Part shown: piece after piece, positions 1,331 through 49,217 of the stretch | Layout: the number at the start of each line of letters is the position of its first letter | Numbering within the stretch: the first letter of the stretch is position 1 | Assembly: GCA_964385615.1 (NCBI GenBank) | Contig: CAYLPP010000010.1 | Coordinates: forward strand, 21,565 to 85,564 | Source: an uncultured bacterium | GTDB lineage: Bacteria; Omnitrophota; Omnitrophia; Omnitrophales; Aquincolibacteriaceae | Length of the DNA stretch: 64,000 nt | Direction: 5' to 3' | Program-made: the position numbers and the translations under genes | The notes under the pieces: generated by a model | Seen by the model: the letters and a program-made list of their open reading frames with translations, nothing else | The model's database searches: none | What the model was told of the DNA's origin: nothing

Positions 1331-1810
1331 TCAAAAAAGAATGTCCCTGCCGGCGCCTTTGAAGCCTTTGAGGGCGGAATCCCATGAAAACAGAGCGGCT
1401 TTGTCTGCTTTGCCGTTAATCGTGGAAACAACCAGATAAAAGACACCGGGCCAGGCAGGAACTCCATCGGGAGCCGCCATTTTCCTGTCCTCTTCCGAGA
1501 AATAAGCGCCTGAGTCCGGGTGAGAGTGGTAAATGACACGGACAACTTCTCCGGATTCCCGGCACTGTTTCTGCAAATTCAGAAGTTCTGCCGGATCCAT
1601 AAAGAAAGCATTACGGGACGTGCGGGGAAAAGTTTCAGGGTCCTGACGGTGAAGTTCATCCTGAGCGTTACGGCACGGCACAATCCGGGTGAGCGTTTCC
1701 GGCTGTTTTTCAGGTCCCGTGATAATGCCGCAGCATTCCGAAGGGTATTCCTTTTCTGCCTGCAGACGGATCTGTTCAAGGAATCCTGAGGGGATTTTTA
1801 AAGCGGTCAT
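1331..1810 (-). CDS. JAMM/MPN+ (Mov34) zinc metallopeptidase, Mec+/CysO-peptidase-like
   Basis: HSHPDSGAYFSEED is a complete H-x-H-x7-S-x2-D JAMM motif, and there is an upstream conserved Glu in AEKEYPSECCG. The protein is about 160 aa, as expected for carrier-protein deubiquitinase-like peptidases. Confidence 0.8.
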   Translation of the reverse strand: MTALKIPSGFLEQIRLQAEKEYPSECCGIITGPEKQPETLTRIVPCRNAQDELHRQDPETFPRTSRNAFFMDPAELLNLQKQCRESGEVVRVIYHSHPDSGAYFSEEDRKMAAPDGVPAWPGVFYLVVSTINGKADKAALFSWDSALKGFKGAGRDILF

Positions 1811-20095: not shown

Positions 20096-20104
20096 AAACG
20101 CCCG

Positions 20105-21397: not shown

Positions 21398-21403
21398 AGA
21401 TTC

Positions 21404-22648
21404 CTATTTTGAGTTCGCGTAACGGATTAACTCGGTCATGGGCCGTTTGGACGGACACACGTAGGAGCAATTTCCGCATTCCACGCAATATTCTGAACCA
21501 TACTGCCGCGCCAGATTAACTCTGTCATTTTCGGCAGCAAGACTGATCATAGCCGGAGAAATTCCGGCCGGACAAACATCCAGACATCGCCCGCATCGAA
21601 TACAAGGTTCCGGGACTTCCGGCCTGGAGGCCTCAATCGGCAGAGCCAGAATCCCCTGGGTTCCAGGCACAACAACAGCATCCAGACTCTTTTGAGTCTT
21701 TCCGCTCATGGGACCGCCCATGATTAATTTTCGGGGTTCACGCATAAAACCTTTACAAGTTTTAACGACGCTTGAAAAATCCTGCCCCATCCGGGCCCAG
21801 ACATTTTTAGGCTCCATCACGCATTCCCCGGAAACAGTCACAACCCGCTCAAGAAAAGGCTTATGGAAAACCGCGGCTTCATACACCGCGAAAACCGCGG
21901 ATGGATCAAAAATACAGGCGGAATCCAACCCGGCCCGGCGAGAAAGAATATTTTCAGTGTCCGGGTAACCGCATGGAATCATCCGCACATCAGCGTGTTC
22001 CCATTTCAAAAAATAGATTTTACTTTTCAAAAGTTCCGCGGCTTCACGTTTATCCTCTTCGGTCACGATCAGAATATTTTCAGCACCGCACGCGCGCCTG
22101 AGAATTTCAGCGCCTTTCAAAATTTCCAGAGGATGCGACATGATCAAAGAGTAATTCGAGGAAAGATACGGCTCCGACTCACAAGCATTCACAACGAGCG
22201 TCTTAGCCGGGGCTTTGATTTTAAGATGCGCGGGCGTCATTTTCAGATCCGTATCCATCAGGCCCATTTCCCTGAAAAATTCCGGCCACCGGTCCGCCGG
22301 CATTTTTTCCCAGTCCTGCTCTTTTCCGAATCCCGGTATTTTTTCATCCTGGCCGTCAGAAAGAATTTCAATGGCCTGCGATCTTCCAAAAACCGGGTGC
22401 TCTATTTTAAGAATTTTCGAGACTTTTCCAGAGACGGACGCGTGAAGCGCGACATTGGAAATATGCCCCGGCTCGGCGATTTTTTGCCCCATAAGAACAG
22501 CATCCCCCGCTTTCACGCAGGGATGGGCTTCAAAACCGGTGGATTGCAGAAGGGGAACGCAAATTTTAGCGGGAGAGGAAGAAGGGCGGTGAATCGTCCA
22601 GATCAGGAAAAAAATTTCTTTTTTGTTTTCGAGCTTTAAAAGTTTCAT
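21404..22648 (-). CDS. RnfC-like subunit with two [4Fe-4S] ferredoxin motifs but no GGAGFP flavin/NADH motif
   Basis: Aligns to E. coli RsxC in the barrel-sandwich region (CVKAGDAVLMGQ), the ...LVVNACESEPY... region, VTVSGE...NVWARMG and IMGGPMSG. It has two CxxCxxCxxxCP motifs (CIRCGRCLDVCPA and CVECGNCSYVCPS). The position of GLGGAGFPTGVKL reads GLMDTDLKMTPAHLKIK. Confidence 0.6.
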   Translation of the reverse strand: MKLLKLENKKEIFFLIWTIHRPSSSPAKICVPLLQSTGFEAHPCVKAGDAVLMGQKIAEPGHISNVALHASVSGKVSKILKIEHPVFGRSQAIEILSDGQDEKIPGFGKEQDWEKMPADRWPEFFREMGLMDTDLKMTPAHLKIKAPAKTLVVNACESEPYLSSNYSLIMSHPLEILKGAEILRRACGAENILIVTEEDKREAAELLKSKIYFLKWEHADVRMIPCGYPDTENILSRRAGLDSACIFDPSAVFAVYEAAVFHKPFLERVVTVSGECVMEPKNVWARMGQDFSSVVKTCKGFMREPRKLIMGGPMSGKTQKSLDAVVVPGTQGILALPIEASRPEVPEPCIRCGRCLDVCPAGISPAMISLAAENDRVNLARQYGSEYCVECGNCSYVCPSKRPMTELIRYANSK

Positions 22649-22666: not shown

Positions 22667-23740
22667 TCAGGACACGAGATCAATCCAACCGCCGCCCAAA
22701 ACCCTGTTACCGTCATAGAGAACCGCGCCCTGCCCCGGAGTAATGGCATCCTGCGGCTCTTCAAATTCAATGGCAATACTCTGATCATTTAAAACCCTGA
22801 TTTCCGCGGGAGCCTTGGTGTGCTGTGAGCGGATTTTAACATGCGCCTTAAAAAGATTTTCACCTGGTTTCACAAACCAATTCATACGGCCCACATTGCA
22901 CCGCAAGCCGTACACTTCTTCTTTTGTGCCGACAACCACTTCATTTGTTTCAGGCAATGTTTCAAGCACGTAAAGGCGTTCTGAATTTCCTCCGCCCAAG
23001 CCGCGCCGCTGGCCGCGGGTGTAATTAAAAAATCCTTCGTGTTCGCCAAGAACCTGGCCCGCGCGGGTACGGATAATTCCTTTACGGGGAGCCGCTTCCT
23101 TATATTCGCGTTTCAGAAACTGACCGTAATCATTGCTCGGAATAAAGCAGATTTCCTGAGAATCCGGCTTTCCGGCAACTTTCAGCCCCATTTCAGCCGC
23201 CTGAGCCCGAATCTCCGCCTTGGTGAAACCTCCAATAGGAAGGTAAAGCCGGTTCAGCACTTCCGGGTCTAAAGGAAACAGAACATACGACTGATCTTTT
23301 GAAGCATCGGCACCTTCTGATAAAACCGAACGGCCGGTTTCGTCACGTTCAAGTTTCGCGTAATGTCCGGTGGCAATCGCGTCAAAACCCAATTCCTGGG
23401 CGCGCTTTAAAAATAGACGAAATTTGATGTGCTCATTACAAGCGACGCAAGGATTGGGTGTACGGCCCTTGAGGTATTCGGAAGCAAAATAATCAACAAC
23501 GTGTTTTTTGAAATCTTTTTCAAAATTAAAAACCCAGTAGCGGATTCCCAGTGATTCAGCGACATCACGCGCGTCTTCAACGCCGGAAAGACCGCAGCAG
23601 GCCCGGGTATTCAGATCCGCGCATTCATTGGAAGCCCACGTGCGGATCGTGGCCCCCGCGACCTCATGGCCCTGCTTCTGTAAAAGAGCCGCGGCCACGG
23701 AACTGTCCACTCCGCCGCTCATGGCGACAAGTATTTTCAT
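22667..23740 (-). CDS. mnmA: tRNA-specific 2-thiouridylase
   Basis: MKILVAMSGGVDSSVAAALL PP-loop, 357 aa, and a MnmA-type C-terminal domain. Confidence 0.88.
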   Translation of the reverse strand: MKILVAMSGGVDSSVAAALLQKQGHEVAGATIRTWASNECADLNTRACCGLSGVEDARDVAESLGIRYWVFNFEKDFKKHVVDYFASEYLKGRTPNPCVACNEHIKFRLFLKRAQELGFDAIATGHYAKLERDETGRSVLSEGADASKDQSYVLFPLDPEVLNRLYLPIGGFTKAEIRAQAAEMGLKVAGKPDSQEICFIPSNDYGQFLKREYKEAAPRKGIIRTRAGQVLGEHEGFFNYTRGQRRGLGGGNSERLYVLETLPETNEVVVGTKEEVYGLRCNVGRMNWFVKPGENLFKAHVKIRSQHTKAPAEIRVLNDQSIAIEFEEPQDAITPGQGAVLYDGNRVLGGGWIDLVS

Positions 23741-23742: not shown

Positions 23743-25868
<2,126 letters not shown>

Positions 25869-27048: not shown

Positions 27049-28215
27049 TTACTGAAGCGCTTCTTTTAAAGCTTCAAGCAAGAACCGGATATCCCCTTCA
27101 TTGTGAGCCGCGGAAGCCGTAACTCGAAGCCTGGCCTTACCTTTCGGCACCGTCGGATACCTGACCGCGGGCACCAGAACCCCCCGGCTGAGCAGCTTTT
27201 CAGATACCGCTAAAGCTTTTTCTTCCGTTCCCAAAATGACCGGAAGAATCGGGGAAGCATTTCCTTCAGGAATTTCGATCCCCAGACTTTGAAAACCTTT
27301 TTTCAGCCTTTCCGCGTTAGCCCAAAGTTTTAAACGGAGAGCGGGTTCTTCTTTCATAACATCAAAGGCTTCGTGGGCGGCACGGCACACCGCGGGAGGA
27401 AGCGCCGTGGCAAAAATAAACGGCCTGGAAAAATTAATCAGATACTCGACCGTTTGAATGGAGGCCGCCGCAAAACCGCCGATCAAACCCGCCGCTTTCG
27501 ACAAAGTTCCGGTAATGACGTCCACTTTCGCGCAAAGATTTTGATCAATAGCCGGGTTTCCCTGCGGATCGGGAAAAACACCCGTTACATGCGCGTCATC
27601 CAGGACAAGCAAGGTATTGTATTTTTCTTTCAGCCGGACAAGCTCGGAAATATCGGCAAGATCACCATCCATACTGAAAACGGTATCAGAGACCAGAATT
27701 TTCTTTGCGTGCTCTGAAATTTTCAGAATTTCCTCCGCCCGCTCATAATTTTTGTGAGGAAACACGCGGATTTCCGCGCCGGATAAACGGGCACCGTCAA
27801 CCAGTGACGCGTGGCAGAGTTTGTCCATCAGGATCAAATCTCCTTCGCCGGCCAGCGCGCTTAAAACTCCAAGATTCGCGAGATAGCCCGCGCTGAACAA
27901 TAGCGCGTTTTCTTTGTGCTTATAACCGGCAATCTTTTTTTCAAGCCTGACGTGATCCTCTGAGTGACCCGAGATCAGCTGAGCGGCTCCGGAACCCGCG
28001 CCGGTCTCCTGAATCGCTTGGCCAAAAGCCTGAGTAACGCGCGGATGATGCGTCAATCCCAGGTAGTCATTCCCGCAGAAAAGAAGGATTTCACGGCCTT
28101 CGTGAAGGGCTCTGACGGCGCTGACAGGCTGAAGCCCGCGCAGTTTCCGGTAGAGGTTTTTTTCACGGACTTCACGGAGTTCTTCTTCAATAAAATTTGT
28201 CATTTTTGAGTTCAA
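27049..28215 (-). CDS. bioF: 8-amino-7-oxononanoate synthase (alpha-oxoamine synthase family)
   Basis: Aligns along its length with E. coli BioF, for example DTVFSMDGDLADISELV versus EGVFSMDGDSAPLAEIQ, and VRYPTVPKGKARLRVTASAAH versus [21 protein letters not shown]. 388 aa. Confidence 0.75.
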   Translation of the reverse strand: MNSKMTNFIEEELREVREKNLYRKLRGLQPVSAVRALHEGREILLFCGNDYLGLTHHPRVTQAFGQAIQETGAGSGAAQLISGHSEDHVRLEKKIAGYKHKENALLFSAGYLANLGVLSALAGEGDLILMDKLCHASLVDGARLSGAEIRVFPHKNYERAEEILKISEHAKKILVSDTVFSMDGDLADISELVRLKEKYNTLLVLDDAHVTGVFPDPQGNPAIDQNLCAKVDVITGTLSKAAGLIGGFAAASIQTVEYLINFSRPFIFATALPPAVCRAAHEAFDVMKEEPALRLKLWANAERLKKGFQSLGIEIPEGNASPILPVILGTEEKALAVSEKLLSRGVLVPAVRYPTVPKGKARLRVTASAAHNEGDIRFLLEALKEALQ

Positions 28216-29423
28216 ACCTTTCGAAGAAGAATCGCGGCTGCATGACCGCCGAATCCCAACGAGTAGGATAACGCTGTTTGAATTTTCGCGGGCCGGGCTT
28301 TTAGCGGTGTGTAATCCAGGTCACATTCCGGATCAGGTTTTTCCAGATTGGCCGTAGGCGGAACAAAACCGTATTCCATCGCTAAAAAAGCCGCGATCAC
28401 TTCAACGGCACCCGAAGCCCCGAGCATATGGCCGGTAATCGATTTAGTGGAAGTCATGGGAATTTTAAAAACTCCGCTGCCGAAGAATTTTTTAAGCTGG
28501 CAGGTTTCGTATACATCCCCAAGCTTGGTCGCGGTACCATGAAGATTAATATGCTGAATTTCAGACCGGCTGACCCCGGTTAATTCAAGCGCTTGTTCTA
28601 ACGTCCGTTGTAAGGTATCCCCGTCAGGATCAAATTGGACAGGATCATACGCGTCCATACCATAAGCTCCTCCGAGAATTTCTCCGTAGATTTTAGCGCC
28701 TCGAGCTTTAGCGCTTTCCAAAGTTTCCAAAAAAATCACCCCGCCCCCCTCACCGACCCCGAATCCATCCCGGCGCAAATCAAAAGGACGCATGGGACCG
28801 CGCGTAAGGGCTTTCATATTATGGTAAGCAGCCATCATGAGCGGTGTTACTGAAGCGTCGCTGGAACCCGCAAGGCAGTAATCCGTGTAGCCATCTGCGA
28901 CCATACGGGCACCCTCAAGAATCGAAGCCGTTCCCGTGGCGCAAGCCAGAACATAGCATTTAGCGGGACCTTGAAGTTTCCATTTCCGCGCGATCCATTG
29001 AGCGCCAAAATTCGGAACAGAATTACAGTAAATGCGCGCGCCCAGAATCGCACTTGGATTTTTTTTAAACCGCTCTGAGAAACGGTCAAGCGTGTGAACA
29101 CCGCCCTTGCTTGAACTAACCGCCATTCCAACACGATAAGGGTCTACTTGAGACGGATCAAACTTCGCGTCCCGCAAAGCTTCATCCGCGGCCGCAACCG
29201 CGTATTGAATGAATGGATCCAAAAGATGGGTGCCGTGCACATGGGGAACAAAATTTTTAACTTCGTAGGCGTATTTAGCGGGAAAATCTGGAATATCAAA
29301 AGAACGGATGGGACCTCCGCCATGATTACCCGCGCGAAGATTGCTCAGGAATTCAGGAAGACTGCTGCCCGCCGGACTGACCACGCCCATTCCGGTGGCA
29401 ACCACACGGCGCTTAAAACTCAT
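28212..29423 (-). CDS. Beta-ketoacyl-ACP synthase I/II-like (FabF/FabB family)
   Basis: 403 aa with a KAS I/II-type thiolase fold: active-site Cys region (ACATGT), HGTATKLGD and [14 protein letters not shown]. Overlaps bioF by 4 nt. Confidence 0.75.
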
Positions 29424-31237
29424 TTCCCCCCGTCGGCCTGGAGAAAAATATTCTGAGAGTTTAAAAACGAAAGGAGTTTTTTGGCGTTTTTTGAAGCGGA
29501 ATCTTTTTCACTTAAATCCAAATCAACAATACTGCTGCGGAATTGATTGGGACCCACGTTTACGATAAAAATACCGGAACGGTCCGTGACTTCCTGAAGA
29601 AGATGAAGTTCCTCATCATTCAAATTACTGGCTGTTGCCAGCACAATCAGGCCGGCATCCATTAAAATGTGCCCGACTTCGCCCAAACGGCGGACGTGTT
29701 CACGGCGTTTGGATTTATGCCCTTCAATATCCGCGTCTAACCCGCGAAGAAGATTTCCAATACCCAGAAAATAGGTTTTAGCTCCATTTTCAAAAAGAGT
29801 TTTTTCTACTTCCTTAGCGATCGTCTTTTTATCGACTCCCACTTTACCGGTCAAAAGAACCAGCTTGGGCTGGTGACCATACTTAGCCTCCCGCACCTTG
29901 GGTTCGACAACGCTGAAATCCCATTTCATTTCGCGTTCGTGCACCTGCTCGCGAACATCCGCCTGGTCATCGCGCACCAAAGCGGAAATAATTCCTCCGC
30001 CGGCAATATCGTATTGGTCTACGATCACAAACCGGCCCGTAGCTTCAATCGCATCCGCCGTATCAAAAGCAAGCGGGCGGGCGCATTCAAGCACGCACTG
30101 GGCAACATCATGACGCTCAATGATTTTCTTCTCAGCCTTCTTCAGGTCAGAAGCATCAATGATCTTTTTGATGGTTTTTAAATAAACAGGAACGGCAGCG
30201 CTTCCAATCTTGAGTTTGTATTCCTTGTCCTGAACCATTGGACTCTTGCCCATCCAGAAGATCTCAACCTGAATCAGCGGACCAACCAACGGCTGGGTTT
30301 CCTCCAGCTTGCACATAATATCGCCACGCTGAATATAAATCTGTTCTTTCAGGGTGAATCCAGCGCAATACCCGGCAACCATTTTTTTAGGTGACGGAGC
30401 ATTGAAAATTTCGATACTTTTAATTTCAGTCCGCTTGTTGGATGGCAGGAAGACGACCTTATCACCGACAGCAATGGTTCCCGCTTCAATCTTACCTGCC
30501 ACGATACGGCGGTCATCCCCCTCTTCCGTAAACTTGTAAACACCCTGCACCGGAAGACGAAAAGGTTTTTGCGCCAAGTCCGGAGCTTTTTCAAACAAGT
30601 CCAGAACCTCGAGCACGGATGGGCCTTTAAACCAGGAAAGATTTTTAGAGCTTTCGATCAGATTTTCACCGTGCATCGCGGCGAGCGGAATAAAAAACTT
30701 AGGCTCGACGCCGATCTGCTTCAGAAACTTGCGGTATTCAATCTGAATATCGTTAAAAGCTTTTTCGCTGTAATTAACCAAATCCATTTTGTTAACACAA
30801 ACCGCGATCTGGCGGATGCCAAGCATGGAAAGCAGGTAGCCGTGACGTTTAGAATTTTCCTGCACGCCTTCTTTAGCGTCAATAATCAAAAGAGCGGCTT
30901 CAGCTCGCGCGGCACCGCTAACCATGTTTTTCAGAAATTCAATGTGTCCGGGAGCATCGATAATAATGTATTCGCGTTTCTTGCTTTTAAAAAAGCAGCG
31001 GGCTGAATCAATCGTGATTCCCTGAGCTTTTTCATCTTTAAGAGCATCGAGAAGGAAAGCGTATTCGAAGGGTTTGGAATTGCGTTTGCACTCAGCGCGA
31101 ACCTGATCCAGCTTACCCTGAGGAAGCGAACCTGTATCCGCGAGCAAACGGCCAATGACCGTGCTTTTGCCATGGTCCACATGACCCACGATCACAATAT
31201 TCATTTTTAGGTCATTTTTTTCAGCCGTCTTAGACAT
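29420..31237 (-). CDS. cysN: Sulfate adenylyltransferase subunit 1 (CysN GTPase) fused to a C-terminal APS-kinase-like domain with degenerate catalytic motifs
   Basis: N-terminal GHVDHGKST / DAPGH / NKMD GTPase motifs. The C-terminal roughly 175 aa align to CysC ([22 protein letters not shown] versus [22 protein letters not shown]). The P-loop reads GKVGVDKKT instead of GLSGSGKST, and the LDGD motif is LGIG. Confidence 0.8.
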
Positions 31238-32112
31238 TACATGTATCCTTCTTTACGAAGAGTCTCAAGACCGCCGTCTTCAGCATCCTGCGCGCGGCCG
31301 GCACGCTCAGCAATGTTCGCAAATTTACCGGTCTTAAGTTCTTGAATAATCTCTTTAATATTTTTTGCCGTGGATTCCACTGAGGAAGTGCACGGGTAAC
31401 AGCCCAGGGAACGGTAACGTCTACCGGTACCTTGATCGAAATAAAGAGGAACTACCGGAATGTTTTCCGCATCGATATATTCCCAAATATCGAGCTCCGT
31501 CCAATCAAGCAAAGGATGAACCCGGATATGCGTTCCTGGCGCGAAATCCGTTTTGAACTGGTTCCAGAGTTCAGGCGGCTGATCGCCGATATTCCAGTCA
31601 TTGCGTTTATCGCGAGGAGAAAAATAGCGTTCTTTTGACCGGCTGCCTTCTTCATCGGAGCGCACGCCGACGATCACGCCGGTATAAGGTTCTTTATTTT
31701 CATCAACAACGTATTTTTTAAGCTCATGATCCATACGGTAACGCGTCCACTCGCCAGAAAGGGTTTTACGAAGAGCTTCCGTCTTTAAAGTTTTGCAGCA
31801 GCTGAGGCGATCGAGATTACCATCCGGATAGGTACGCTTTTCTCTAAGCGCATCCACGTTTTGTCCGTAAACCATGTTCAGCTTCCATTCCAGAGCGAGC
31901 CGGTCACGGTACTGAATCATTTCCGGGATCTTGTAGGCTGTATCAATATGAACAAGGGGAAAGGGCACGTGGCCGAAAAACGCCTTGCGGGCCAGCCAGA
32001 GTAGAACAGTGCTGTCTTTGCCGATCGACCAGAGCATCGCCAGGTTTTTAAAGTTGGCGTAGGCCTCGCGCAAAATATAAACGGATTGAGCTTCAATCTT
32101 TTCGAGATGTGT
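31237..32112 (-). CDS. cysD: Sulfate adenylyltransferase subunit 2
   Basis: [46 protein letters not shown] aligns to the E. coli CysD N-terminus. The ORF track extends it to a TTG at 32157. The stop overlaps the cysN start. Confidence 0.85.
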
Positions 32113-32204
32113 CATAAATGAAGAGTCCGTATTATAGCACAACTCCTGAATTTGCAAAGAGTTGTAATCATGAATCCCTATTGATGCGGTAGGGATTTAT
32201 CCGG

Positions 32205-32921
32205 CTAGATTTTTCGGGATTCGAAGTGAAAAACCTGTCCCGTGACCCCTTTCATGGCGTCTGAAGACAGATAAACCAGAAAATCCGCGACTTCTTCGGG
32301 GTCGGAAATCCGGCCAAGAGGGCTGGCTTCGGTCTGGTTGAGCAAGACCTGCTCAGGAAGATTTTCAGTCATAGAGGATTTCATGAACCCCGGATTGACC
32401 GCATTGACTAGAATGCTTTTTTTACCAAGTTCCTGGGCTAGAGATTTCGTCAAACCAATCAGTCCGGCCTTGGCGGCAGAATAATTCGAAATTCCGACAC
32501 CGCCTTGAATCGCGGCACGGCTGGTAATCATTAAAATTTTGGCCGGAGGCTCTGCCCGAAAAAGAGACAGCAAAAGTTTTTTCGTCAGGTAATACGGAGC
32601 TTTTAAATCCACCGCCATGACGTGATCCCATTCCTCTTCCGTCATATTCTGCAGAGTGTGGTCACGCACCGCGGCCGCATTATGAATCAAAACATCCAGC
32701 GTTTTTATTTTTTCTTTGAAGGTCTTAACAAAAGCGTCAATAGCGGCGGTGTCGGCAAGATTAAGGGGAAAGCCTTCCGCTCCGCTTTTTTGAAGCTCTT
32801 GTGCCTCAGTAAGATTTTGATGGTAGGTAAAAAAAACGCGGGCACCTGCCGCTGCCGCTTTTCGGACAAAGCAGCTTCCCAATCGGCTTGTGCCTCCCGT
32901 GATCAGGATATTTTTATTCAA
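32205..32921 (-). CDS. Short-chain dehydrogenase/reductase (FabG-like)
   Basis: TGGTSRLG Rossmann motif, NAA, and the YSAAKAG catalytic Tyr-x3-Lys; 238 aa. The start overlaps the bioB stop (ATGA). Confidence 0.75.
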   Translation of the reverse strand: MNKNILITGGTSRLGSCFVRKAAAAGARVFFTYHQNLTEAQELQKSGAEGFPLNLADTAAIDAFVKTFKEKIKTLDVLIHNAAAVRDHTLQNMTEEEWDHVMAVDLKAPYYLTKKLLLSLFRAEPPAKILMITSRAAIQGGVGISNYSAAKAGLIGLTKSLAQELGKKSILVNAVNPGFMKSSMTENLPEQVLLNQTEASPLGRISDPEEVADFLVYLSSDAMKGVTGQVFHFESRKI

Positions 32922-33943
32922 ACTTGCGCGGGATCTTTCTTGGAATCAGCCGCCGGGCGTTTTGCAGGTTCAAAGCCGGCGCGCTTCAGCATCTCAAAAT
33001 CGTCTTTCATAGGATTCGCAGAAGTCGTGAGATACCCGCCGACAATCAAACCATTCGCACCGCCCTTAAGCGACATTTCCTGGTATTGATTCCCCAAATT
33101 CACTTCCCGTCCTCCAGCCAGTTTAATGTTGGCTTTCGGATGGATAAACCGGTAAACGGCGATGGTTTTAACCATTTCCAGCGGATCGGGCGCCGGTACA
33201 TTTTCTAATGGCGTTCCAGGACGAGGGTTCAAGATATTCATCGGAAGACAATGAGGCGCGAAAGGCTTAAGTTCAAAAGCCAGTTTCACGCGGTCTTCAC
33301 GGGTTTCTCCCATGCCAAGAATTCCTCCGGAGCAAATTTCCATATTCCCGTCCTGAAGCATCTTCAAGGTTTCAAGTCTCTTATCATAAGTATGCGTGGT
33401 CACAATCTTAGGATAAAACTCGCGGGAACTCTGAAGGTTATCATTAAAACGGCGGACCCCCGTTTCCTTCAAGCGCTTCACCCGTTCTGGAGTCAAAAAT
33501 CCCAAAGACCCGTCTAAATTCATGGAGGTTTCCGCTTTTAGGCGCGTATAAATTTCGATGACCTGATCGAATTCTTTCTCAGACAATTCCCCGCCGCTGG
33601 TCACAACGCAGAAATTATGAGCACCTTTCTTTTCGAAATCCTTAGCCGCCGCGACCACTTCTTCGGTCGGCATCATCTGATAGCGGTTAACCCGGGTATC
33701 AAAACGCACGGACTGCGAACAAAAACCGCAATCTTCTCCGCAAAGATAACTCTTGGCGTTAATCAAAGAACAAAGTCCCGGCTCATTGGAGTTAAAATTA
33801 AAATTAATTTCCCGCGCCGCTTCCAAAAGCGGTTCCATGTCCGGCCCCGCCGGATCAATTTCGACGAGCTTCATCGCTTCTTCAAAAGAAACTTCTCCGC
33901 CGCCCAAAACTTTGTTTTTGAGTTCTTCGATCAAATTTTTCAT
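32918..33943 (-). CDS. bioB: Biotin synthase (radical SAM)
   Basis: CGEDCGFCSQS radical-SAM cluster motif. NDNLQSSREFYPKIVTTHTYDKRLETLKMLQDGNMEICSGGILGMGET aligns to E. coli BioB [47 protein letters not shown]. Confidence 0.8.
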   Translation of the reverse strand: MKNLIEELKNKVLGGGEVSFEEAMKLVEIDPAGPDMEPLLEAAREINFNFNSNEPGLCSLINAKSYLCGEDCGFCSQSVRFDTRVNRYQMMPTEEVVAAAKDFEKKGAHNFCVVTSGGELSEKEFDQVIEIYTRLKAETSMNLDGSLGFLTPERVKRLKETGVRRFNDNLQSSREFYPKIVTTHTYDKRLETLKMLQDGNMEICSGGILGMGETREDRVKLAFELKPFAPHCLPMNILNPRPGTPLENVPAPDPLEMVKTIAVYRFIHPKANIKLAGGREVNLGNQYQEMSLKGGANGLIVGGYLTTSANPMKDDFEMLKRAGFEPAKRPAADSKKDPAQV

Positions 33944-33950: not shown

Positions 33951-34193
33951 TCAGCCTTCAACAATATCCCCGATGACCGGATCCACACCCACGCCTTTTT
34001 CGCGCAAGCCTTTCTCGGCTTTGTCGATATCCGATTGGGCGCCTTCCAGTTCGATCGTGGCTTCACCCGCTTCATGCGAAATCTTGGCGCGGCGAATATT
34101 TAAGAGCAGGTTGTTGTCACGGGCCACCAGGTACATGATAGGCTCCTTGATCAATTTCTGAGGAAAAACGAGGTGGAACGCTTTTTTGGGCAT
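33951..34193 (-). CDS. Stand-alone NIL-domain (MetN C-terminal-like, ferredoxin-fold) protein
   Basis: About 80 aa resembling the C-terminal NIL domain of methionine-ABC ATPases (NNLLLNIRRAKI...GEATIELEG). The start is set at the internal Met to avoid overlap with the carrier gene. Confidence 0.45.
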   Translation of the reverse strand: MPKKAFHLVFPQKLIKEPIMYLVARDNNLLLNIRRAKISHEAGEATIELEGAQSDIDKAEKGLREKGVGVDPVIGDIVEG

Positions 34194-34194: not shown

Positions 34195-34470
34195 TTACCC
34201 TCCGGCAATCGCGGGAACGATAGAAATCTGATCCCCGTCTTTCAGAGACGTTTCTTCCTGCTGAAGAAAGCGGATGTCTTCTTCGTTCAGGTAAACATTC
34301 ACGAACCGGCGAACTTTTCCGGTATCGTCGCAAAGGCGGTCCTTGATGCCTGGAAAATTTTTCTCGAGCTGATTGATCATGTCCTTGACGTTGCCGGCCT
34401 GGATATCAACTTCACCCTGATTATTGGTCAGTTTCTGAAGCGGTGTTGGAATTCTTACTTTAATCGCCAT
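34195..34470 (-). CDS. MoaD/ThiS/CysO-type sulfur-carrier protein ending in Gly-Gly
   Basis: 91 aa with a beta-grasp-sized ORF whose C-terminus is ...[10 protein letters not shown] followed by stop. It lies between the NIL protein and the PLP enzymes. Confidence 0.75.
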
Positions 34471-34500: not shown

Positions 34501-35751
34501 TCAGACTTTAACAGCCGCGCCAGACCCCATAACCTTGCTGTCAAAAGAAGACAGATTCGGCTCAATAAGCGAGGGCTCGCCCACGCTGTCCTGGATCGCT
34601 TCCTGCGTTTTTAGACCATTTCCGGTAATCGCCAAAACGGTTGACCCGGTTTTCGGAATGACGCCCTGTTCAATCAGTTTCTTGGCGGTGGCTACGGTTA
34701 CTCCGCCGGCTGTTTCGGTGAAAATACCTTCAGTGCGCGCCAAAAGCTTGATGCCTTCCCGGATCTCATCATCTGAAACAATTCCGGCGGCGCCGCCGGA
34801 ATTTAAAATAACATCTTTCGCGTAATAACCATCGGCAGGATTGCCAATCGCGAGCGATTTGGCAATCGTTGAGGGTTTAACGGGCCGGATCACATCTGCT
34901 TTGGCTTGAATTGCGGTAGAAATCGGCGAACAGCCTTCAGGCTGAGCGCAGAAAACCTTGGTCTGCACTTTATTTTCGAGCAGGCCGAGTTTTTCAAATT
35001 CTTTTAAAGCTTTCCAGATTTTTGTGATTAAAGAACCGCTGGCAGCCGGAGCCACAATATGATCAGGGGCGCGCCAACCAAGCTGTTCAGCAATTTCAAA
35101 ACCCATAGTCTTGGAACCTTCAGCGTAATACGCGCGCAAATTAATATTCACAAAACCCCAACGGTACTTAGCCGCGATCTCAGCGCATAAACGGTTAACA
35201 TCGTCGTAGTTTCCGTTCACGGCGACCAGGTTCGGAGAATAAACAAGACTGGCGATAATCTTGGTTTTTTCCAACGTCGCCGGAATAAAAATGTAGCGCT
35301 TGAAACCCGCCCATGCCGCATTGGCGGCAACCGAATTCGCTAAATTGCCGGTTGAAGCGCAAGCAACCGTATCAAAACCCAATTCCCGGGCGCGGGACAA
35401 AGCGACTGCCACAACACGGTCTTTAAACGACCAGGTTGGATGGCATACAGAATCATCCTTAATATAGAGTTCTTTAACCCCAAGCTCACGGGCAAGCACA
35501 TCCGCTTTAACCAGCGGAGTAAACCCAGAATAAAAACCAGCGCTGGGCTCTCCGTCGATCGGCAGTAATTCACGGTAACGCCACAAACTTTTCGGACCCT
35601 TAAGAATTTTATCCCGGGTCAAAGTTTTTTTTATGCCGTCATAATCGTAAACCGCCTCAAGAGATCCAAAGCAGTACTCACAGACATAGAGCGCCTGCTT
35701 GGGAAATTCGCGGCCGCATTCACGGCATTTTAACGCTTTCAAGAAAGACAT
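34501..35751 (-). CDS. Threonine-synthase-family PLP enzyme with an N-terminal Cys4 zinc ribbon (candidate carrier-protein-dependent homocysteine synthase, or cysteate synthase)
   Basis: CRECG...CEYC ribbon, SFKDR PLP-lysine motif, and a ThrC-like fold over 416 aa. Its neighbours are the GG carrier and the APS/PAPS reductase. Confidence 0.6.
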   Translation of the reverse strand: MSFLKALKCRECGREFPKQALYVCEYCFGSLEAVYDYDGIKKTLTRDKILKGPKSLWRYRELLPIDGEPSAGFYSGFTPLVKADVLARELGVKELYIKDDSVCHPTWSFKDRVVAVALSRARELGFDTVACASTGNLANSVAANAAWAGFKRYIFIPATLEKTKIIASLVYSPNLVAVNGNYDDVNRLCAEIAAKYRWGFVNINLRAYYAEGSKTMGFEIAEQLGWRAPDHIVAPAASGSLITKIWKALKEFEKLGLLENKVQTKVFCAQPEGCSPISTAIQAKADVIRPVKPSTIAKSLAIGNPADGYYAKDVILNSGGAAGIVSDDEIREGIKLLARTEGIFTETAGGVTVATAKKLIEQGVIPKTGSTVLAITGNGLKTQEAIQDSVGEPSLIEPNLSSFDSKVMGSGAAVKV

Positions 35752-35765: not shown

Positions 35766-36722
35766 TTAGACTTTGAAGGCCTCATCCATGCTGAGATACC
35801 GTTCGCCGGTATCACAAATCACGGTGACCACATTTTTACCAGGACCAAGCTCACGGGCCAGTTGAAGCGCCGCCCATACGTTGGCACCCGCTGAAATACC
35901 GCACAGAAGCCCTTCTTTTGAAGCAAGCTCCATGGAAGTTTTCCAAGCATCCTGATCTTCAACCTGAATAACTTGATCGATCACATTACGGTTTAGAACT
36001 TCCGGAACAAAACCCGCGCCGATGCCCTGAATTTTATGTTTCCCCGGAGCACCTCCGGAAAGAACAGGCGAGGTTTTCGGCTCCACAGCAACGACTTTAA
36101 TAGCCGCGTTTTTCTTTTTGAATACTTCCCCGCAGCCTGTCACGGTTCCGCCGGTACCCACGCCAGCGACAAAACCATCCACTTTCCCATCCAGGGCTTC
36201 CCAGATTTCTTCAGCCGTGGTTTCACGGTGAATTTTAGGGTTGGCCGGATTGGCAAACTGCTGCGGAATAAAACTGTTTTTATTCTGTTCGGCAATTTCT
36301 TTAGCCTTGGCAATCGCGCCTTTCATGCCTTCCGCGCCCGGCGTCAGCACAAGCTCGGCTCCGTACCGCTTCAAAAGCTGACGGCGCTCCACGCTCATTG
36401 TTTCCGGCATAGTCAAAATCAAACGGTACCCTTTCACGGCGCAAACCAGCGCGAGACCAATTCCGGTATTGCCTGATGTAGGCTCTACAATGACCGTGTC
36501 TTTATTAATCAGCTTTTTTTCTTCCGCGTCCCGAATCATGCTTAAACAAATCCGGTCCTTAACGCTTCCCCCCGGATTAAAAGATTCCAGTTTTCCATAA
36601 ACCGCGGCCATTTGCGGATTCGCTAATTTATTGATGCGAACTAACGGAGTGTTACAGATCAACTCAAGCATATTAGAGGCTAATGCGGGCTTGCTGTGCT
36701 TCACGGTCGTCGTCATAATCAT
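35766..36722 (-). CDS. cysK: Cysteine synthase (O-acetylserine/O-phosphoserine sulfhydrylase; CysK/CysM family)
   Basis: SVKDR PLP lysine, [10 protein letters not shown] and GIGAGFVP motifs; 318 aa. Confidence 0.8.
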
Positions 36723-36730: not shown

Positions 36731-37489
36731 TTAAATATTTTCCGAATACCCGGCCTGGTCTTCTTTGGGTTCGGACATTTCTTTGGGTTTTACTTCTTTA
36801 AATGTGTGGATACCGCATTCCTTTTTACTCAACCCTGCCCAGCGCCCTGAACGCTCATCATCCCCGGCCTGAATGGGTTTGGTGCACGGCCAGCAGCCAA
36901 TACTTAAATACCCTTTTTCAAAAAGAGGGTGCTGAGGAATCTGGTGTTCCTTTAAATACCACCAGGCGTCGCGGGACGTAAAATTAGCCAGCGGGCTGAC
37001 TTTATAAAGACCGCCCTCATATTCTTCAAGAATCCGGATAGACTTCCTAAAGTCGGTTTGATGCCTGCGGATTCCGCTCATCCAGGCGTCATAATTTTTA
37101 AGCGCTTCGTCCAGAGGTTCAACTTTATTGATCTGACAGCACAAGTCCGGATTTTTCTCGTAAGGGACGCCGTCATAGCGCTTCACAACTTCCGCTTTCT
37201 TGGCCGGATCCGCCTTCAAATCGAGAACCTGGGTCAGGCCAAACATCTGCACCAGCCTGTTTTTGTATTCGAGCGTCTCAGGAAAATGATATCCGGTTTC
37301 CAAAAAAAGAACAGGAATATTTGGGTTGATCCGGCTAGCCATATGAAGCAGAACACCGCTTTCCGGCCCGAAGGAAGAAGTCATGGCAAAACGCGGGAAT
37401 TCTTTCACCGCCCAGGCAATAATCTCCTGCGGTTTTTTATTTTCAAAATCATCGTTAAATTTTTCAAGATCTATTTTGCTGATCAACAC
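36731..37489 (-). CDS. cysH: Adenylylsulfate/phosphoadenylylsulfate reductase, Fe-S-containing type
   Basis: PAPS_reduct fold with the CC pair ([10 protein letters not shown]) and CxxC (SIGCWPC) that ligate the [4Fe-4S] cluster of APS-reductase-type enzymes. Confidence 0.8.
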
Positions 37490-37497: not shown

Positions 37498-38367
37498 TTA
37501 GGCGGCAATGCGGCCGCGTAAACGCTCAACCATTTCATAACCCATCTGAATACCGTAACTGCCAAGATCCACGCCAGGTTTTTGCGTGCCGTGAAAATCG
37601 CTCCCGGCAGTTACAACCAAGTTATAGCGCTTGGCTATTTTTAGATAAACGCCCTGCTCTTCCATGTTCTGACAACTGTTATAAACTTCGATGCCGGCTA
37701 AACCGTATCCGGCCAGTTTTTCAATTTCACGGTCCAACTCACCGTCATTCAATTTCATTTGCTTCGGGTGAGCCACAGAAGCAACCCCGCCCGCTTTTTG
37801 AATTAATTCAATCGCTTCCCGGGCTTCAATGCGTCTTTTGTCAATATAAGCCGGCCGGCCTTTCGCCAGATACTTTTCAAAGGCTTCCCGGGCATCTTTA
37901 ACAACACCCTTTTTAACCAGAACTTTGGCAAAATGCGGGCGCCCGATCTGTTTAAGGTTTTCCGGCACTTCTTTCGAAGCCCCCGAAAAAGCTTCTTCAA
38001 GAACTTCCTTCATAGTAATTTCAATTCCCGACTCATTGAGTTTTCGAATGATGCCGGGATTTCTTTCACGCCGGGCGATCTGAATTTCTTCCAGTTTCCG
38101 CTTTAAATCCGGATGATTACGATCCAGAAAATAACCCAACACATGCAGTGTTCCGGGTTCAAAAACGGCGCTGAGCTCAATCCCCGGGACAAGCTCAATC
38201 CCTAATTTTTCAGCTTCCCGCGCACACGGTTCGTAACTCGACATCGTGTCATGATCTGTAACCGAAACACACGCCAGTTTTTTTTCCGCGCAATAGCGCA
38301 TCAACGCTTCCGGAGAGTAGCTCCCGTCAGAGTGCGTGGTGTGCATATGAAAATCCACAATTTTCAT
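37498..38367 (-). CDS. PHP-family phosphoesterase (candidate 3'-phosphoadenosine-5'-phosphate phosphatase)
   Basis: MKIVDFHMHTTHSDGS... with a PHP-domain His/Asp pattern (HxH, DHD). The start is set at the internal Met so that it abuts the cysC stop. It sits between cysC and cysH. Confidence 0.6.
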   Translation of the reverse strand: MKIVDFHMHTTHSDGSYSPEALMRYCAEKKLACVSVTDHDTMSSYEPCAREAEKLGIELVPGIELSAVFEPGTLHVLGYFLDRNHPDLKRKLEEIQIARRERNPGIIRKLNESGIEITMKEVLEEAFSGASKEVPENLKQIGRPHFAKVLVKKGVVKDAREAFEKYLAKGRPAYIDKRRIEAREAIELIQKAGGVASVAHPKQMKLNDGELDREIEKLAGYGLAGIEVYNSCQNMEEQGVYLKIAKRYNLVVTAGSDFHGTQKPGVDLGSYGIQMGYEMVERLRGRIAA

Positions 38368-38368
38368 A

Positions 38369-38947
38369 TCAAGCTTTAAACTGAAGGTACCCCAGAGCTT
38401 CCAGGCGGCTGACAACTTTCGCTGCGGACTGTTCCGGCGTTTCATTTTCGGTTTCGCAGACAACTTCAGGATTCAAAGGTTCTTCATAGGGGTCATCCAC
38501 GCCAGTCATGCCTTTCAGCTCGCCGGCTTTGGCTTTTTCATAAAGACCCTTCACGTCACGTTTTTGACATTCCGCCAAAGAAGTTTTCACAAAAACCTCG
38601 ACAAAATTTCCAATCATACGCCGGGCTTGATCCCGCGTTTCACGGTAAGGGGAAATGGCGGAGGAAACCGCCAAAACATCATTGCGGGTCAAAAGTTGGC
38701 AAACAAAAGCCAAGCGTTTGACATTTGTGTCCCGGTCTTCTCGGGAGAAACCCAAACCCTTGGTTAAATGAGTGCGAATCACGTCACCATCCAGCAACTC
38801 TGTTTTAAGACCCCACTTGCGGAATTGTCTCTCAAGAAGCCGGGCAATGGTGGATTTGCCGGAACTAGGCAGGCCGGTAAACCAAACCGTGACCCCCCGG
38901 GTCAGGCTGGCTTGATCACGTTTTAAGATGGCTGTATCAGTTGTCAT
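38369..38947 (-). CDS. cysC: Adenylylsulfate kinase
   Basis: VWFTGLPSSGKSTIARLL P-loop and the LDGDVIR motif; 192 aa. Confidence 0.88.
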   Translation of the reverse strand: MTTDTAILKRDQASLTRGVTVWFTGLPSSGKSTIARLLERQFRKWGLKTELLDGDVIRTHLTKGLGFSREDRDTNVKRLAFVCQLLTRNDVLAVSSAISPYRETRDQARRMIGNFVEVFVKTSLAECQKRDVKGLYEKAKAGELKGMTGVDDPYEEPLNPEVVCETENETPEQSAAKVVSRLEALGYLQFKA

Positions 38948-39006: not shown

Positions 39007-39035
39007 ACTATACATCTAAAGAGAAAGGGTGTCAA
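39007..39035 (-). promoter_or_regulatory. Near-consensus sigma70-type promoter upstream of cysC
   Basis: On the minus strand the sequence reads TTGACA-17 nt-TATAGT. The ATG follows about 65 nt downstream, and the -35 element overlaps the tatC stop codon. Confidence 0.5.
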
Positions 39036-47174: not shown

Positions 47175-48083
47175 TCAAGACCCCTTAGGAAGACCTGTCT
47201 GTTCCAAAATTCGGTCAAGGTCATCTAAGGAGAAATAACGAATCTCAACTCGCCCCTCTTTTTGGTTCTTTTTGGGGTAAATTTTAACTTCTGTGCCAAA
47301 ATGTCTCGATAGACGCGCCTCTAAGTCCACAATTTCAGGGCGTAAGTGCCGAGCTGTCTTGGCTTTGCGTTTATGGGCGTTACTACGGCCAACAATCGCC
47401 TCTACCTGACGAACTGAGAGATTCTCCTGAACGATACGACGGGCCATCTGCCTTTGATGCTCTGGAGTCATAAGCCCTAAAATAGCGCGAGCGTGCCCCG
47501 CGGAAAGCTGGCCGGAAGCTAAATAGATCTGAACTTCATCCGGAAGACGCAGTAACCGCAAGGTATTGGTTACGGTTGAACGCTCTTTACCCACCCTTTT
47601 AGCAATTTCTTCCTGAGAAAGCATTCTTTCTTCGGCCAACCGCCGGTAAGCCTCCGCCTCTTCAATGGCATTCAAATCCTGGCGCTGAATATTTTCAATC
47701 AATGCCCATTCCAGGAAATCATCCTGAGCTAAATCTTTGACCACCGCCGGTACTTCCGTTAATCCGCAAACGGTAGCCGCACGAAAACGGCGCTCTCCGC
47801 AGATAAGCATATATTGGTTTTCGCCTTTTTTTGTCACAATAACAGGCTGTAAAATCCCCTTCTCTTTAATGGAAGCCGCTAAATCACGGATTGCTTCATC
47901 TGAAAATTCTTTCCGTGGTTGATCCACGTTTGGAATAATTTGAGACAGAGGAATCATTTGAAACCCGCCGCTCGAAACAACTTTCGCCCGGACACCTGAA
48001 ACGGCAGTTTCTTTTTGAGATTCTTTTACATAATTATCTGGTATTAAAGAACTTAGGCCTTTGCCTAAAGCTTTCTTAATCAT
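47175..48083 (-). CDS. parB: Chromosome partitioning protein ParB (Spo0J)
   Basis: GERRFRAA / HTH region and a ParB N-terminal domain; 302 aa. It overlaps parA. Confidence 0.88.
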   Translation of the reverse strand: MIKKALGKGLSSLIPDNYVKESQKETAVSGVRAKVVSSGGFQMIPLSQIIPNVDQPRKEFSDEAIRDLAASIKEKGILQPVIVTKKGENQYMLICGERRFRAATVCGLTEVPAVVKDLAQDDFLEWALIENIQRQDLNAIEEAEAYRRLAEERMLSQEEIAKRVGKERSTVTNTLRLLRLPDEVQIYLASGQLSAGHARAILGLMTPEHQRQMARRIVQENLSVRQVEAIVGRSNAHKRKAKTARHLRPEIVDLEARLSRHFGTEVKIYPKKNQKEGRVEIRYFSLDDLDRILEQTGLPKGS

Positions 48084-48922
48084 ACATTCTCCTCGATTTT
48101 GGCAGCGGATTCAGAATTTTGGGACGGTGCCGTTTCCGATAATTTTTCGGGCGCATGGGAACTGAAACGATTGGCAAATTCTTCCGCGATTAAAACATAA
48201 TTTTTTGAGCCGCGATTAGAAGGGTCATAAAAAACAGCTGGCTTTCCAAAGCTAGGCGCCTCAGAAAGCTTCACGGATCTAGGAATGATACTTTCAAATA
48301 CTTTTTCTTTAAAATACCCTTTAACCTCCTCAATAACTTGCTGGGTTAAATTGGTCCTGAAATCAGCCATTGTTAATAAAACTCCGCCGATTTCCAACTC
48401 TGGTTTCAAATTTTGCTTTACCAACTGAAATGTATTTAAGAGCTGCCCAAGTCCCTCGAGCGCATAGTATTCACATTGAAGCGGAATAATAAGAAAGTCA
48501 CTCGAGGTTAACGCGTTAATCGTCACAAGCCCTAAAGACGGCGGACAATCCAAGAAGATAAAATCAAAATTTTCAGCAATTTCCGTAAGCCTCTCTTTAA
48601 GCCTGTATTCGCGTTTCTCGCGATTCACAAGCTCCAAGTCAGCTCCGGAAAGGTCCATATTTGAAGGGATTAGGAAAATATTCTCAAACTGAGTTTTTCG
48701 AACAAGATCGGCGGCATTTGAGTTTTCCACAATCAGTTGATAACTTGTGGATTCTATAGAAGGCTTTTCTTCGCCAAGCCCGCTGGTAGCATTTCCCTGA
48801 GAATCTAAATCGATAATCAAAATTTTGAAACCTTGTTTTGATAAAGAAGCCGCAATATTAATAACAGAGGTTGTTTTACCAACCCCCCCTTTTTGATTAC
48901 AGAAAGCGAAGACTTTTTTCAT
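48080..48922 (-). CDS. parA: Chromosome partitioning ATPase ParA (Soj)
   Basis: FCNQKGGVGKTTSVINIA deviant Walker A; 280 aa. Confidence 0.88.
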   Translation of the reverse strand: MKKVFAFCNQKGGVGKTTSVINIAASLSKQGFKILIIDLDSQGNATSGLGEEKPSIESTSYQLIVENSNAADLVRKTQFENIFLIPSNMDLSGADLELVNREKREYRLKERLTEIAENFDFIFLDCPPSLGLVTINALTSSDFLIIPLQCEYYALEGLGQLLNTFQLVKQNLKPELEIGGVLLTMADFRTNLTQQVIEEVKGYFKEKVFESIIPRSVKLSEAPSFGKPAVFYDPSNRGSKNYVLIAEEFANRFSSHAPEKLSETAPSQNSESAAKIEENV

Positions 48923-48992
48923 TAGGAATCCTCTAGATGAAATTCCGCATTATACGCACAATGGCCTTGAAACGAATCTCTCCGGATACTCT

Positions 48993-49008
48993 TTGTTCCA
49001 CGTGAAAC
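48993..49008. promoter_or_regulatory. parS centromere site
   Basis: TGTTCCACGTGAAACA is a 16/16 match to the canonical parS palindrome. Confidence 0.75.
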
Positions 49009-49153
49009 ATAAACTGTTTTTTAGTCTGTTCTACGCCGAAGGCGTTGGAGTTTCCTTAAGATTGCGCCCGATTATATCAAGGATTTTGCACGTTTAAATA
49101 GTTTTGTTCTTAATTTATCGATCAGCAGGGGAGATTAATTGAGGGGGGAATTT

Positions 49154-49169: not shown

Positions 49170-49217
49170 TTTTAAAAATATGAGTGTAACTGTAATAATT
49201 AAATATGTTTACATAAA

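Follow-up and report, generated by a model that had tools for sequence, protein, structure and literature searches.

The gene examined here lies on a 64,000-nucleotide (nt) stretch of contig CAYLPP010000010.1 from an uncultured Omnitrophota bacterium, and this whole 64-kb stretch is called the window throughout. The gene, termed metM-like here, is read from the minus strand and encodes an enzyme with the fold of threonine synthase (ThrC). It stands between a cysK gene and the gene of a small sulfur-carrier-like protein ending in two glycines (metO-like), which is its direct downstream neighbour at a distance of 30 nt and is itself followed by the gene of a stand-alone NIL-domain protein. The features of the gene and its immediate neighbours are as follows.

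35766..36722, minus strand: cysK, of the O-acetylserine sulfhydrylase A type, 14 nt upstream of the metM-like gene (TIGR01139, 459 bits, cutoff 351).
34501..35751, minus strand: metM-like gene, an ATG-started open reading frame (ORF) of 416 amino acids (aa) encoding a ThrC-fold enzyme dependent on pyridoxal phosphate (PLP).
35671..35727, minus strand: codons 9-27 of the metM-like gene, a zinc-ribbon-like motif in the translation, C9-x2-C12 ... C24-x2-C27.
35416..35430, minus strand: codons 108-112 of the metM-like gene, the SFKDR PLP motif (S108-F-K110-D-R112), with K110 the predicted Schiff-base lysine.
34195..34470, minus strand: metO-like carrier of 91 aa with a ThiS/MoaD/Urm1 fold, C-terminus AIAGG and then the stop (Pfam ThiS, 3.7e-17).
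33951..34193, minus strand: stand-alone NIL-domain protein of 80 aa, its ATG at 34193, one base past the metO stop (Pfam NIL, 8.5e-10).

The window protein matched Pfam PALP over residues 76-377 (6e-65). Its best NCBIfam matches were threonine synthase models, with 266.8 bits on TIGR00260 thrC (cutoff 167.1) and 288.7 bits on the more specific PRK08197, below the cutoff of 303 for that model. Among solved structures the best matches, at E 3e-42 to 3e-53, were with ThrC from B. subtilis, A. aeolicus, T. thermophilus and M. tuberculosis (PDB 6cgq, 2zsj, 1uim, 2d1f), whose alignments with the window protein are confined to its residues 53-405. K110 corresponds in the alignment to K61, the PLP lysine of T. 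thermophilus ThrC, and is invariant in 82/82 members of the family described below. All of the 240 homologues listed in the protein searches were either named threonine synthase or unnamed, the nearest named ones coming from metagenome-assembled genomes of Candidatus Omnitrophota. The carrier also passed the NCBIfam model moaD_arch (51.9, cutoff 49.5). The first-pass annotation of this DNA, made from the letters alone, had described the gene as a ThrC-family enzyme with an SFKDR motif and an N-terminal Cys4 ribbon, and the PALP and TIGR00260 matches, the four ThrC structures and the cysteines C9, C12, C24 and C27 bear out that description. It had also placed the gene next to the adenosine phosphosulfate (APS) reductase and the GG carrier. 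The carrier is indeed adjacent and the reductase gene cysH is two genes upstream, but the direct upstream neighbour is cysK.

Orthologues were collected by scanning one genome per species, which gave 80 loci encoding proteins 53-80% identical to the window protein. The loci span more than 10 phyla, among them Nitrospirota, Nitrospinota, Elusimicrobiota, Verrucomicrobiota, Planctomycetota, Chloroflexota, Acidobacteriota and Actinomycetota; 82 family members entered the alignment and the residue counts. An orthologue in Nonomuraea gerenzanensis (L001) was reached by tblastn of a plasmid collection, in which its chromosome is filed as a plasmid. This protein is 53% identical to the window protein over 408 residues and has the same Cys4 ribbon. 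An S-adenosylmethionine (SAM) riboswitch of class SAM-I lies directly upstream of its gene (RF00162, 68.7 bits), the gene is followed by that of a 91-aa carrier ending in GG and 46% identical over its full length to the window carrier, and the chromosome carries a separate canonical thrC elsewhere. The best 120 matches of the Nonomuraea orthologue in a protein search were all from Streptosporangiales.

The riboswitch recurs across the family. With Rfam, a SAM-I riboswitch was found just upstream and on the same strand in 9 of 19 loci. A covariance model built from these Rfam SAM-I hits then found 42 SAM-I riboswitches, one in Nonomuraea and the others in 41 of the 77 loci with at least 150 nt of upstream sequence; all of them are on the strand of the gene and just upstream of it. 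This feature was seen for orthologues of the window gene and not for the window copy itself. Neighbouring genes were counted by targeted tblastn, as unbiased ORF clustering was distorted by antisense ORFs and merged PLP enzymes. Of the 80 loci, 60 have a MetO-like gene no more than 500 nt downstream and 69 have one somewhere within the flanks, while a ThiF/MoeB-type activating enzyme (E1) is present in 19. Genes of the homoserine pathway are found less often (thrB in four of the 80, HomK, TIGR02535, in four, hom in six and aspartate kinase in seven); HomK forms O-phosphohomoserine (GapMind 2026 preprint). The ORF clustering of neighbourhoods returned no further recurrent neighbour family, and the targeted tblastn panels were without metA or metX.

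Several longer proteins were seen alongside the family. One of 563 aa (P0213) joins a ThiF (E1) domain to the N-terminus of a MetM-like domain sharing 49% identity with the window protein, which may be a Rosetta-stone fusion or an artefact of gene calling. Fusions to a LeuA allosteric domain or a PadR DNA-binding domain were seen in more distant ThrC-like proteins, at 37-40% identity (P0231 and P0259, about 610-620 aa; P0220 and P0256, about 490-500 aa).

The family could be separated from canonical threonine synthase by gene content and by residues. In all six of the six Nitrospirota loci (L004-L009), whose MetM-like proteins are 67-70% identical to the window protein, a separate canonical thrC lies directly downstream of metM, metO and the NIL gene. 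The canonical thrC products of L007 and L009 score 327-333 bits on TIGR00260, above the 266.8 bits of the window protein. In L007 (4631-9899) hom and an E1 gene are directly upstream, and in L009 (148-6032) the cluster continues with HomK and aspartate kinase. Taken over these clusters, hom, E1, metM, metO, NIL, thrC, HomK and aspartate kinase make up the complete branch point at O-phosphohomoserine. A pair of ThrC-fold genes in one cluster that supplies O-phosphohomoserine fits such a branch point, one being the threonine enzyme and the other the homocysteine enzyme.

For the comparison of residues, ten canonical ThrCs that are proven or defined by their operon were taken: four had structures in the PDB, four came from Firmicutes and actinomycetes, and the Nitrospirota gene clusters supplied the remaining two. 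The window protein is 33-37% identical to them. Both groups have the PLP lysine, the STGN loop and many of the glycines in common, whereas about a dozen positions are fixed differently. L137, N204, R206 and Y209 are present in 82/82 family members where T88, S155, N157 and R160 (Thermus numbering for ThrC residues) are present in 10/10 ThrCs, and further fixed differences from ThrC to the family are G64 to V113, R242 to A301 and S248-W249 to D307-G308. We take T88, S155 and R160 of Thermus ThrC to hold the phosphate of the substrate. In ThrC the phosphate stays bound and helps water to add at C-beta. Loss of these three residues would fit an enzyme that admits the C-terminus of a protein for attack at C-gamma. 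The first-pass annotation had proposed an inspection of substrate-binding residues together with a phylogeny. The former showed the presumed phosphate-site residues to be replaced in every one of the 82 members; the latter was obtained as a neighbour-joining tree in which the family is separated from the canonical ThrCs, with the MetM side represented by the Nonomuraea orthologue. In that tree the window protein groups with two Omnitrophota-like loci, one Elusimicrobiota locus and Nitrospirota, riboswitch-bearing lineages surround this group, and the canonical ThrCs form a distant outgroup.

The above results indicate that the window gene is very probably an orthologue of metM, that is, a ThrC paralogue which, judging from its sequence and that of its relatives, would make homocysteine and which has been mislabelled as threonine synthase. 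This was one of two alternatives offered by the first-pass annotation, and it is now strongly supported by orthology, by the SAM riboswitches of the orthologues, by the metO neighbour, by the co-clustered thrC and by the remodelled phosphate site. The position of the gene in a tightly packed sulfur-assimilation operon was also counted in its favour. The MetM reading rests in part on Nonomuraea because the order riboswitch, metM, metO found there matches that reported for Streptomyces albulus, whose metM has a SAM riboswitch upstream according to a Microcystis study (PMC12172450). In the GapMind 2026 preprint, MetM is described as a homocysteine synthase that depends on MetO thiocarboxylate and acts on O-phosphohomoserine, and as 'often misannotated' as threonine synthase. 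The MetM pathway is already described (Streptomyces, 2024), and the window gene is best taken as a further member of it, in an Omnitrophota-type genome.

The substrates and chemistry, O-phosphohomoserine plus carrier thiocarboxylate giving homocysteine, are inferred by analogy with MetM/MetO of S. albulus and CysM/CysO of Mycobacterium tuberculosis. O-Phosphohomoserine would be bound as an external aldimine to the PLP on K110, and its phosphate would be eliminated to leave a PLP-bound vinylglycine intermediate. The C-terminal thiocarboxylate of the carrier (...GG-COSH) would then attack C-gamma, where ThrC instead adds water at C-beta. The resulting adduct of carrier and homocysteine would be hydrolysed, possibly by a JAMM hydrolase, to release free homocysteine and regenerate the carrier. 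Charging of the carrier would be the task of a ThiF/MoeB-type E1, which would have to be encoded outside the window. The sulfur may be supplied by the sulfate-reduction genes of the same operon, cysC, cysH, cysD and cysN, with the adjacent cysK making cysteine.

Several points weigh against assigning the window gene to metM. No riboswitch of any Rfam family, the SAM riboswitch included, was found in the 64-kb window, and neither was a homologue of a ThiF-type E1, hom, thrB, HomK or a canonical thrC. The protein passes the cutoff of TIGR00260, which is an equivalog model for thrC. The link to the characterised MetM of S. albulus runs through the Nonomuraea protein as a proxy, 53% identical and of the same clade. 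The phosphate-binding role of T88, S155 and R160 is a presumed one. Finally, for a Microcystis 'ThrC' that is 51.6% identical to S. albulus MetM, in vitro assays were reported to give both threonine synthase and deaminase activity, and with Na2S no homocysteine was clearly formed (PMC12172450).

These points lead to the first of the other explanations, namely that the window gene encodes a real threonine synthase, or a bifunctional threonine/homocysteine enzyme, of a zinc-ribbon subtype which sits in a sulfur operon by chance while the carrier serves the cysteine synthase. The score on TIGR00260, the near approach to the cutoff of PRK08197, the names carried by the database homologues, the lack of another thrC within the 64 kb and the activity of the Microcystis protein all speak for it, and the adjacent CysK could in principle use a thiocarboxylate. 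However, the SAM riboswitches found upstream of orthologues in 41 loci are expected for methionine or SAM genes and not for threonine genes, and six Nitrospirota loci have a canonical thrC in the very same cluster. The replacement of T88, S155 and R160 throughout the family and the low identity to ThrCs also argue against it, the adjacent CysK is a standard CysK and not of the CysM type, and the carrier accompanies the ThrC-like gene where no cysK is near, as in Nonomuraea and many other loci. This explanation is therefore considered unlikely. It is still less likely that the protein is a PLP enzyme dependent on the carrier thiocarboxylate but with another substrate or product, such as O-acetyl- or O-succinyl-homoserine, or one using free sulfide with the carrier in an accessory role. 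Such a departure is suggested by there being a single characterised member of the family, with the window protein about 53% identical to the actinomycete clade, by the changed residues of the ThrC phosphate site, such that recognition of phosphate could differ, and by the use of Na2S as the sulfur source in MetM assays (Microcystis study, PMC12172450). Against this, a gene making O-phosphohomoserine, thrB or HomK, adjoins the gene in eight loci and thrC is in the cluster in six, and the carrier is kept in 69 of the 80.

The remaining explanation is the other alternative of the first-pass annotation, a cysteate synthase which would join O-phosphoserine with sulfite from cysH and feed the synthesis of sulfonolipid or coenzyme M (CoM). 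The archaeal enzyme is a ThrC paralogue and its model aligns from residue 7 of the window protein, thus spanning the ribbon; cysH is only two genes upstream and no homologue of sulfite reductase was found in the 64-kb window. The family is nevertheless found under SAM riboswitches, its gene links are with hom, thrB and HomK rather than with serine or CoM genes, and a carrier with a GG thiocarboxylate would be useless for the addition of sulfite. Cysteate synthase was rejected at the level of the model, TIGR03844 giving 72.2 bits against a cutoff of 324.9, and the CysK-like neighbour was likewise rejected as a CapA-type cysteate synthase (NF053679, 216.8 against 600; CysK, 459 against 351). With the model so far below its cutoff and the neighbour a standard CysK, the cysteate synthase alternative was abandoned as extremely improbable. 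The proposed link to sulfonolipid through the ketoacyl synthase (KAS) and bioF-like block was rejected because that block is part of a biotin operon with bioF-like, bioB, bioA and bioD genes. Serine palmitoyltransferase was tried as an identity for the bioF-like protein and rejected, as the Spt models gave 227-296 bits against cutoffs of 500-670 and bioF gave 414.

The N-terminal ribbon noted in the first-pass annotation is not a chance feature. Its four cysteines are retained in 78 (C9), 79 (C12), 80 (C24) and 63 (C27) of the 82 family members, with Asp in place of C27 in 17; the ribbon is kept in most members and is not essential to the family. The Verrucomicrobiota orthologues L015 and L020 have Asp as the replacement of the fourth cysteine, and an Omnitrophota-like locus (L002, 7001-8245, 78% identical) keeps only one of the four cysteines, three being lost. 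Zinc binding by the ribbon may be dispensable because the ribbon is degenerate in L002, L015 and L020. The haloarchaeal thrC proteins have a Cys-rich N-terminal segment which aligns with the window protein from residue 1, and the NCBIfam models PRK08197, PRK05638 and cysteate_syn align from residues 2-7, the cysteate synthase model from residue 7. The ribbon does not discriminate between the possible functions because haloarchaeal thrC also has a Cys-rich N-terminus and the cysteate synthase model spans the ribbon region.

Of the 80 loci, 39-40 have the NIL gene, and in 28 it is no more than 200 nt from metO. It occurs in Omnitrophota-like, Nitrospirota, Verrucomicrobiota, Chloroflexota, Planctomycetota and Actinomycetota loci (including L004-L010, L013, L014, L016, L020, L021, L031, L052, L055, L057, L064, L068, L070 and others). 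Its place varies: Chloroflexota have it between metM and metO, while in those Nitrospirota loci that were examined it comes directly after metO and before the canonical thrC. The close homologues are 79-93 aa long, mostly 80, and are named in the databases either 'NIL domain-containing protein' or by names inherited from multidomain relatives. A search with the family profile hit the C2 domain of E. coli MetN, which binds methionine (3dhx, E 9e-11). MetN N295, the Asn that hydrogen-bonds L-methionine, aligns with the mostly conserved N32 of the NIL protein, and the MetN interface residue A299 aligns with the invariant A36. The literature connects NIL domains with the sensing of methionine and with the formation of homocysteine in methanogens and Desulfovibrio. 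Two other roles were tried and rejected. As a persulfide or sulfur relay the NIL protein is an unlikely carrier because it has no conserved cysteine, and as a substitute for the SAM riboswitch it would not be expected to occur independently of it, as it does, the four combinations being found in 20, 20, 21 and 19 loci.

The NIL protein is probably part of the metM-metO module and a candidate third component of it. Our best guess at its role is that it would sense methionine and adjust the use of O-phosphohomoserine. That it is an unrecognised third subunit of MetM/MetO, a methionine sensor which docks on MetM, ThrC or MetO and controls the split of O-phosphohomoserine between threonine and homocysteine, is a tentative proposal and less probable than not. 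The literature found on the metM-metO pathway, in which the primary MetM paper was not covered, makes no mention of a NIL partner.

Between about 39.0 and 22.7 kb every gene is on the minus strand, and the genes are closely packed. Their order is cysC, a PHP-family gene, cysH, cysK, the metM-like gene, the carrier gene, the NIL gene, bioB, a short-chain dehydrogenase/reductase (SDR) gene, cysD, cysN, the KAS gene and the bioF-like gene, after which come a GGDEF gene, an unannotated ORF of 141 aa, bioA, bioD and mnmA. The features outside the immediate neighbourhood of the metM-like gene are as follows.

39007..39035, minus strand: promoter-like site TTGACA-17-TATAGT (11/12 matches) in the gap between tatC and cysC, a possible operon promoter by consensus match only.
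38369..38947, minus strand: cysC, APS kinase, probably the first gene of the operon (NF002059, 251 bits, cutoff 244).
37498..38463, minus strand: PHP-family protein like 3',5'-bisphosphate nucleotidase, a candidate phosphatase of 3'-phosphoadenosine 5'-phosphate (PAP), assigned at family level (NF041577, 218 bits, below the cutoff of 400).
36731..37489, minus strand: cysH, reductase of APS or of 3'-phosphoadenosine 5'-phosphosulfate (PAPS), with a CC...CxxC iron-sulfur motif and ECGIH (NF002537, 262.7 bits, cutoff 154).
32918..33943, minus strand: bioB.
32205..32921, minus strand: FabG-like SDR.
31237..32157, minus strand: cysD, sulfate adenylyltransferase (Pfam PAPS_reduct).
29420..31237, minus strand: cysN, sulfate adenylyltransferase (Pfam GTP_EFTU and a partial APS_kinase domain).
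28212..29423, minus strand: FabF-like KAS.
27049..28215, minus strand: bioF-like (TIGR00858, 414 bits, just under the cutoff of 426).
24474..25868, minus strand: bioA.
23743..24471, minus strand: bioD.
22667..23740, minus strand: mnmA.
1331..1810, minus strand: Prok-JAB (JAMM) protein, 33 kb away, a weak candidate for a Mec-type hydrolase that would free homocysteine from the carrier or mature the carrier (Pfam Prok-JAB, 2.3e-23).

The metM-like gene is thus wired into an operon of sulfate assimilation and biotin synthesis rather than placed under a riboswitch. The cysK gene keeps its upstream position in Omnitrophota-like, Elusimicrobiota and Nitrospinota loci and in one Actinomycetota locus. 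The motif of CysH, CC...CWPC, is typical of iron-sulfur APS reductases and is accompanied by ECGIH, but the flanking of CysH by APS kinase and a candidate PAP phosphatase suggests the PAPS route. The start codon of the PHP-family gene is uncertain as its ORF overlaps cysC. At the C-terminus of CysN the match to the APS kinase profile is limited to the first half of that profile (positions 2-81 of 152), and the separate, full-length cysC is in the same operon, 7 kb upstream of cysN. The biotin gene set of bioF-like, bioB, bioA and bioD is complete and is interleaved with cysD, cysN and the KAS and SDR genes, the last two of which may be dedicated to the pimeloyl precursor. As for the possible promoter, the total count of promoter-like sites in the region was not above the expectation from shuffled sequence.

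The Prok-JAB protein gave 51 bits on a desampylase model, below the cutoff, and its gene adjoins genes for a HAD hydrolase and a multihaem cytochrome c. JAB genes are found within the module in L013, L014 and L034, and their products are 26-31% identical to the window Prok-JAB protein. Elsewhere in the window, genes for RnfC-like and RnfD/NqrB-like proteins flank that of a 430-aa protein with two DsbA/thioredoxin-like domains (19256-22648, minus strand). The window also holds dnaA, dnaN, gyrB and gyrA (47175-53349, minus strand) and, on the opposite strand, rnpA, yidC, mnmG, parA and parB (53802-61878, plus strand), and the minimum of the cumulative GC skew is near 52-54 kb. Given the presence of dnaA, dnaN, gyrB and gyrA, the window therefore lies at the chromosomal origin.

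The locus can be compared with several known systems. The nearest is MetM/MetO of S. albulus, reportedly the subject of Hasebe et al. 2024 (Appl Environ Microbiol 90:e01247-24). The likeness lies in a ThrC-homologous PLP enzyme beside a small GG-type sulfur carrier, with the same predicted reaction. Unlike the genes of Nonomuraea and S. albulus, the window copy has no riboswitch and is in a long operon with cysC, cysH, cysK, bioB and cysDN. The window carrier already ends in GG, so that it would need no C-terminal trimming as compared with the S. albulus system, and neither an E1 nor a Mec gene is adjacent in the window. A NIL gene follows the carrier gene in the window, whereas the 6-kb flanks of the Nonomuraea gene yielded none.

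The cysteine pathway of M. tuberculosis, with CysM, CysO, Mec and MoeZ, is said to have been described by Burns et al. 2005 and Agren et al. 2008. In both cases a PLP enzyme of fold-type II would exchange the phosphate of a phospho-amino acid for the thiocarboxylate of a ThiS-like carrier, which a MoeB/ThiF-type E1 charges and a JAMM hydrolase recycles, and loci related to that of the window hold all of these parts. The window enzyme, however, is in the ThrC branch and not in that of CysK/CysM, and the predicted reaction is a gamma-replacement on a C4 substrate giving homocysteine and not cysteine. Homocysteine synthesis from a protein thiocarboxylate is reportedly also known from Wolinella succinogenes, where HcyS/HcyF/HcyD and MetY are attributed to Krishnamoorthy and Begley 2011. 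That system shares with the window the protein thiocarboxylate as the sulfur donor for homocysteine and the placing of the genes in a sulfate-assimilation cluster. Its PLP enzyme is a fold-type I O-acetylhomoserine sulfhydrylase that acts on an acyl-homoserine, whereas the window enzyme has the ThrC fold and likely uses O-phosphohomoserine.

With canonical ThrC the window protein shares the fold, SFKDR, the STGN loop and the probable substrate O-phosphohomoserine; it differs in the extra N-terminal Cys4 ribbon and in that the regulation and neighbours of its family point to methionine. The archaeal cysteate synthase, reportedly from Graham et al. 2009, is also a ThrC paralogue recruited to sulfur chemistry, with substrates and context different from those of the window gene. 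The NIL domain is found in other company in the C2 domain of MetN and in MA1822, the NIL-ferredoxin subunit of L-aspartate-semialdehyde sulfurtransferase. In contrast to these, the window NIL protein stands alone, lacks cysteine as well as any ATPase or ferredoxin partner domain, and is encoded within the metM-metO module.

The whole family is carried in the public databases as 'threonine synthase'. With the family misnamed, reconstructions of Omnitrophota, Nitrospirota, Verrucomicrobiota, Chloroflexota, Acidobacteriota and others will therefore miss a methionine pathway, and metabolic reconstructions may wrongly credit or deny threonine synthesis. The residues L137, N204, R206 and Y209 (in place of T, S, N and R), together with the riboswitch and the metO neighbour, provide a rule for re-annotation. 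These diagnostic residues may also be the ones that switch the ThrC scaffold from the addition of water at C-beta to the addition of sulfur at C-gamma. The recurrent NIL partner is a lead on how bacteria regulate the O-phosphohomoserine branch point, and, if the proposal made above is true, control by NIL would be the equivalent, at the protein level, of the control that SAM exerts on this branch point in plants.

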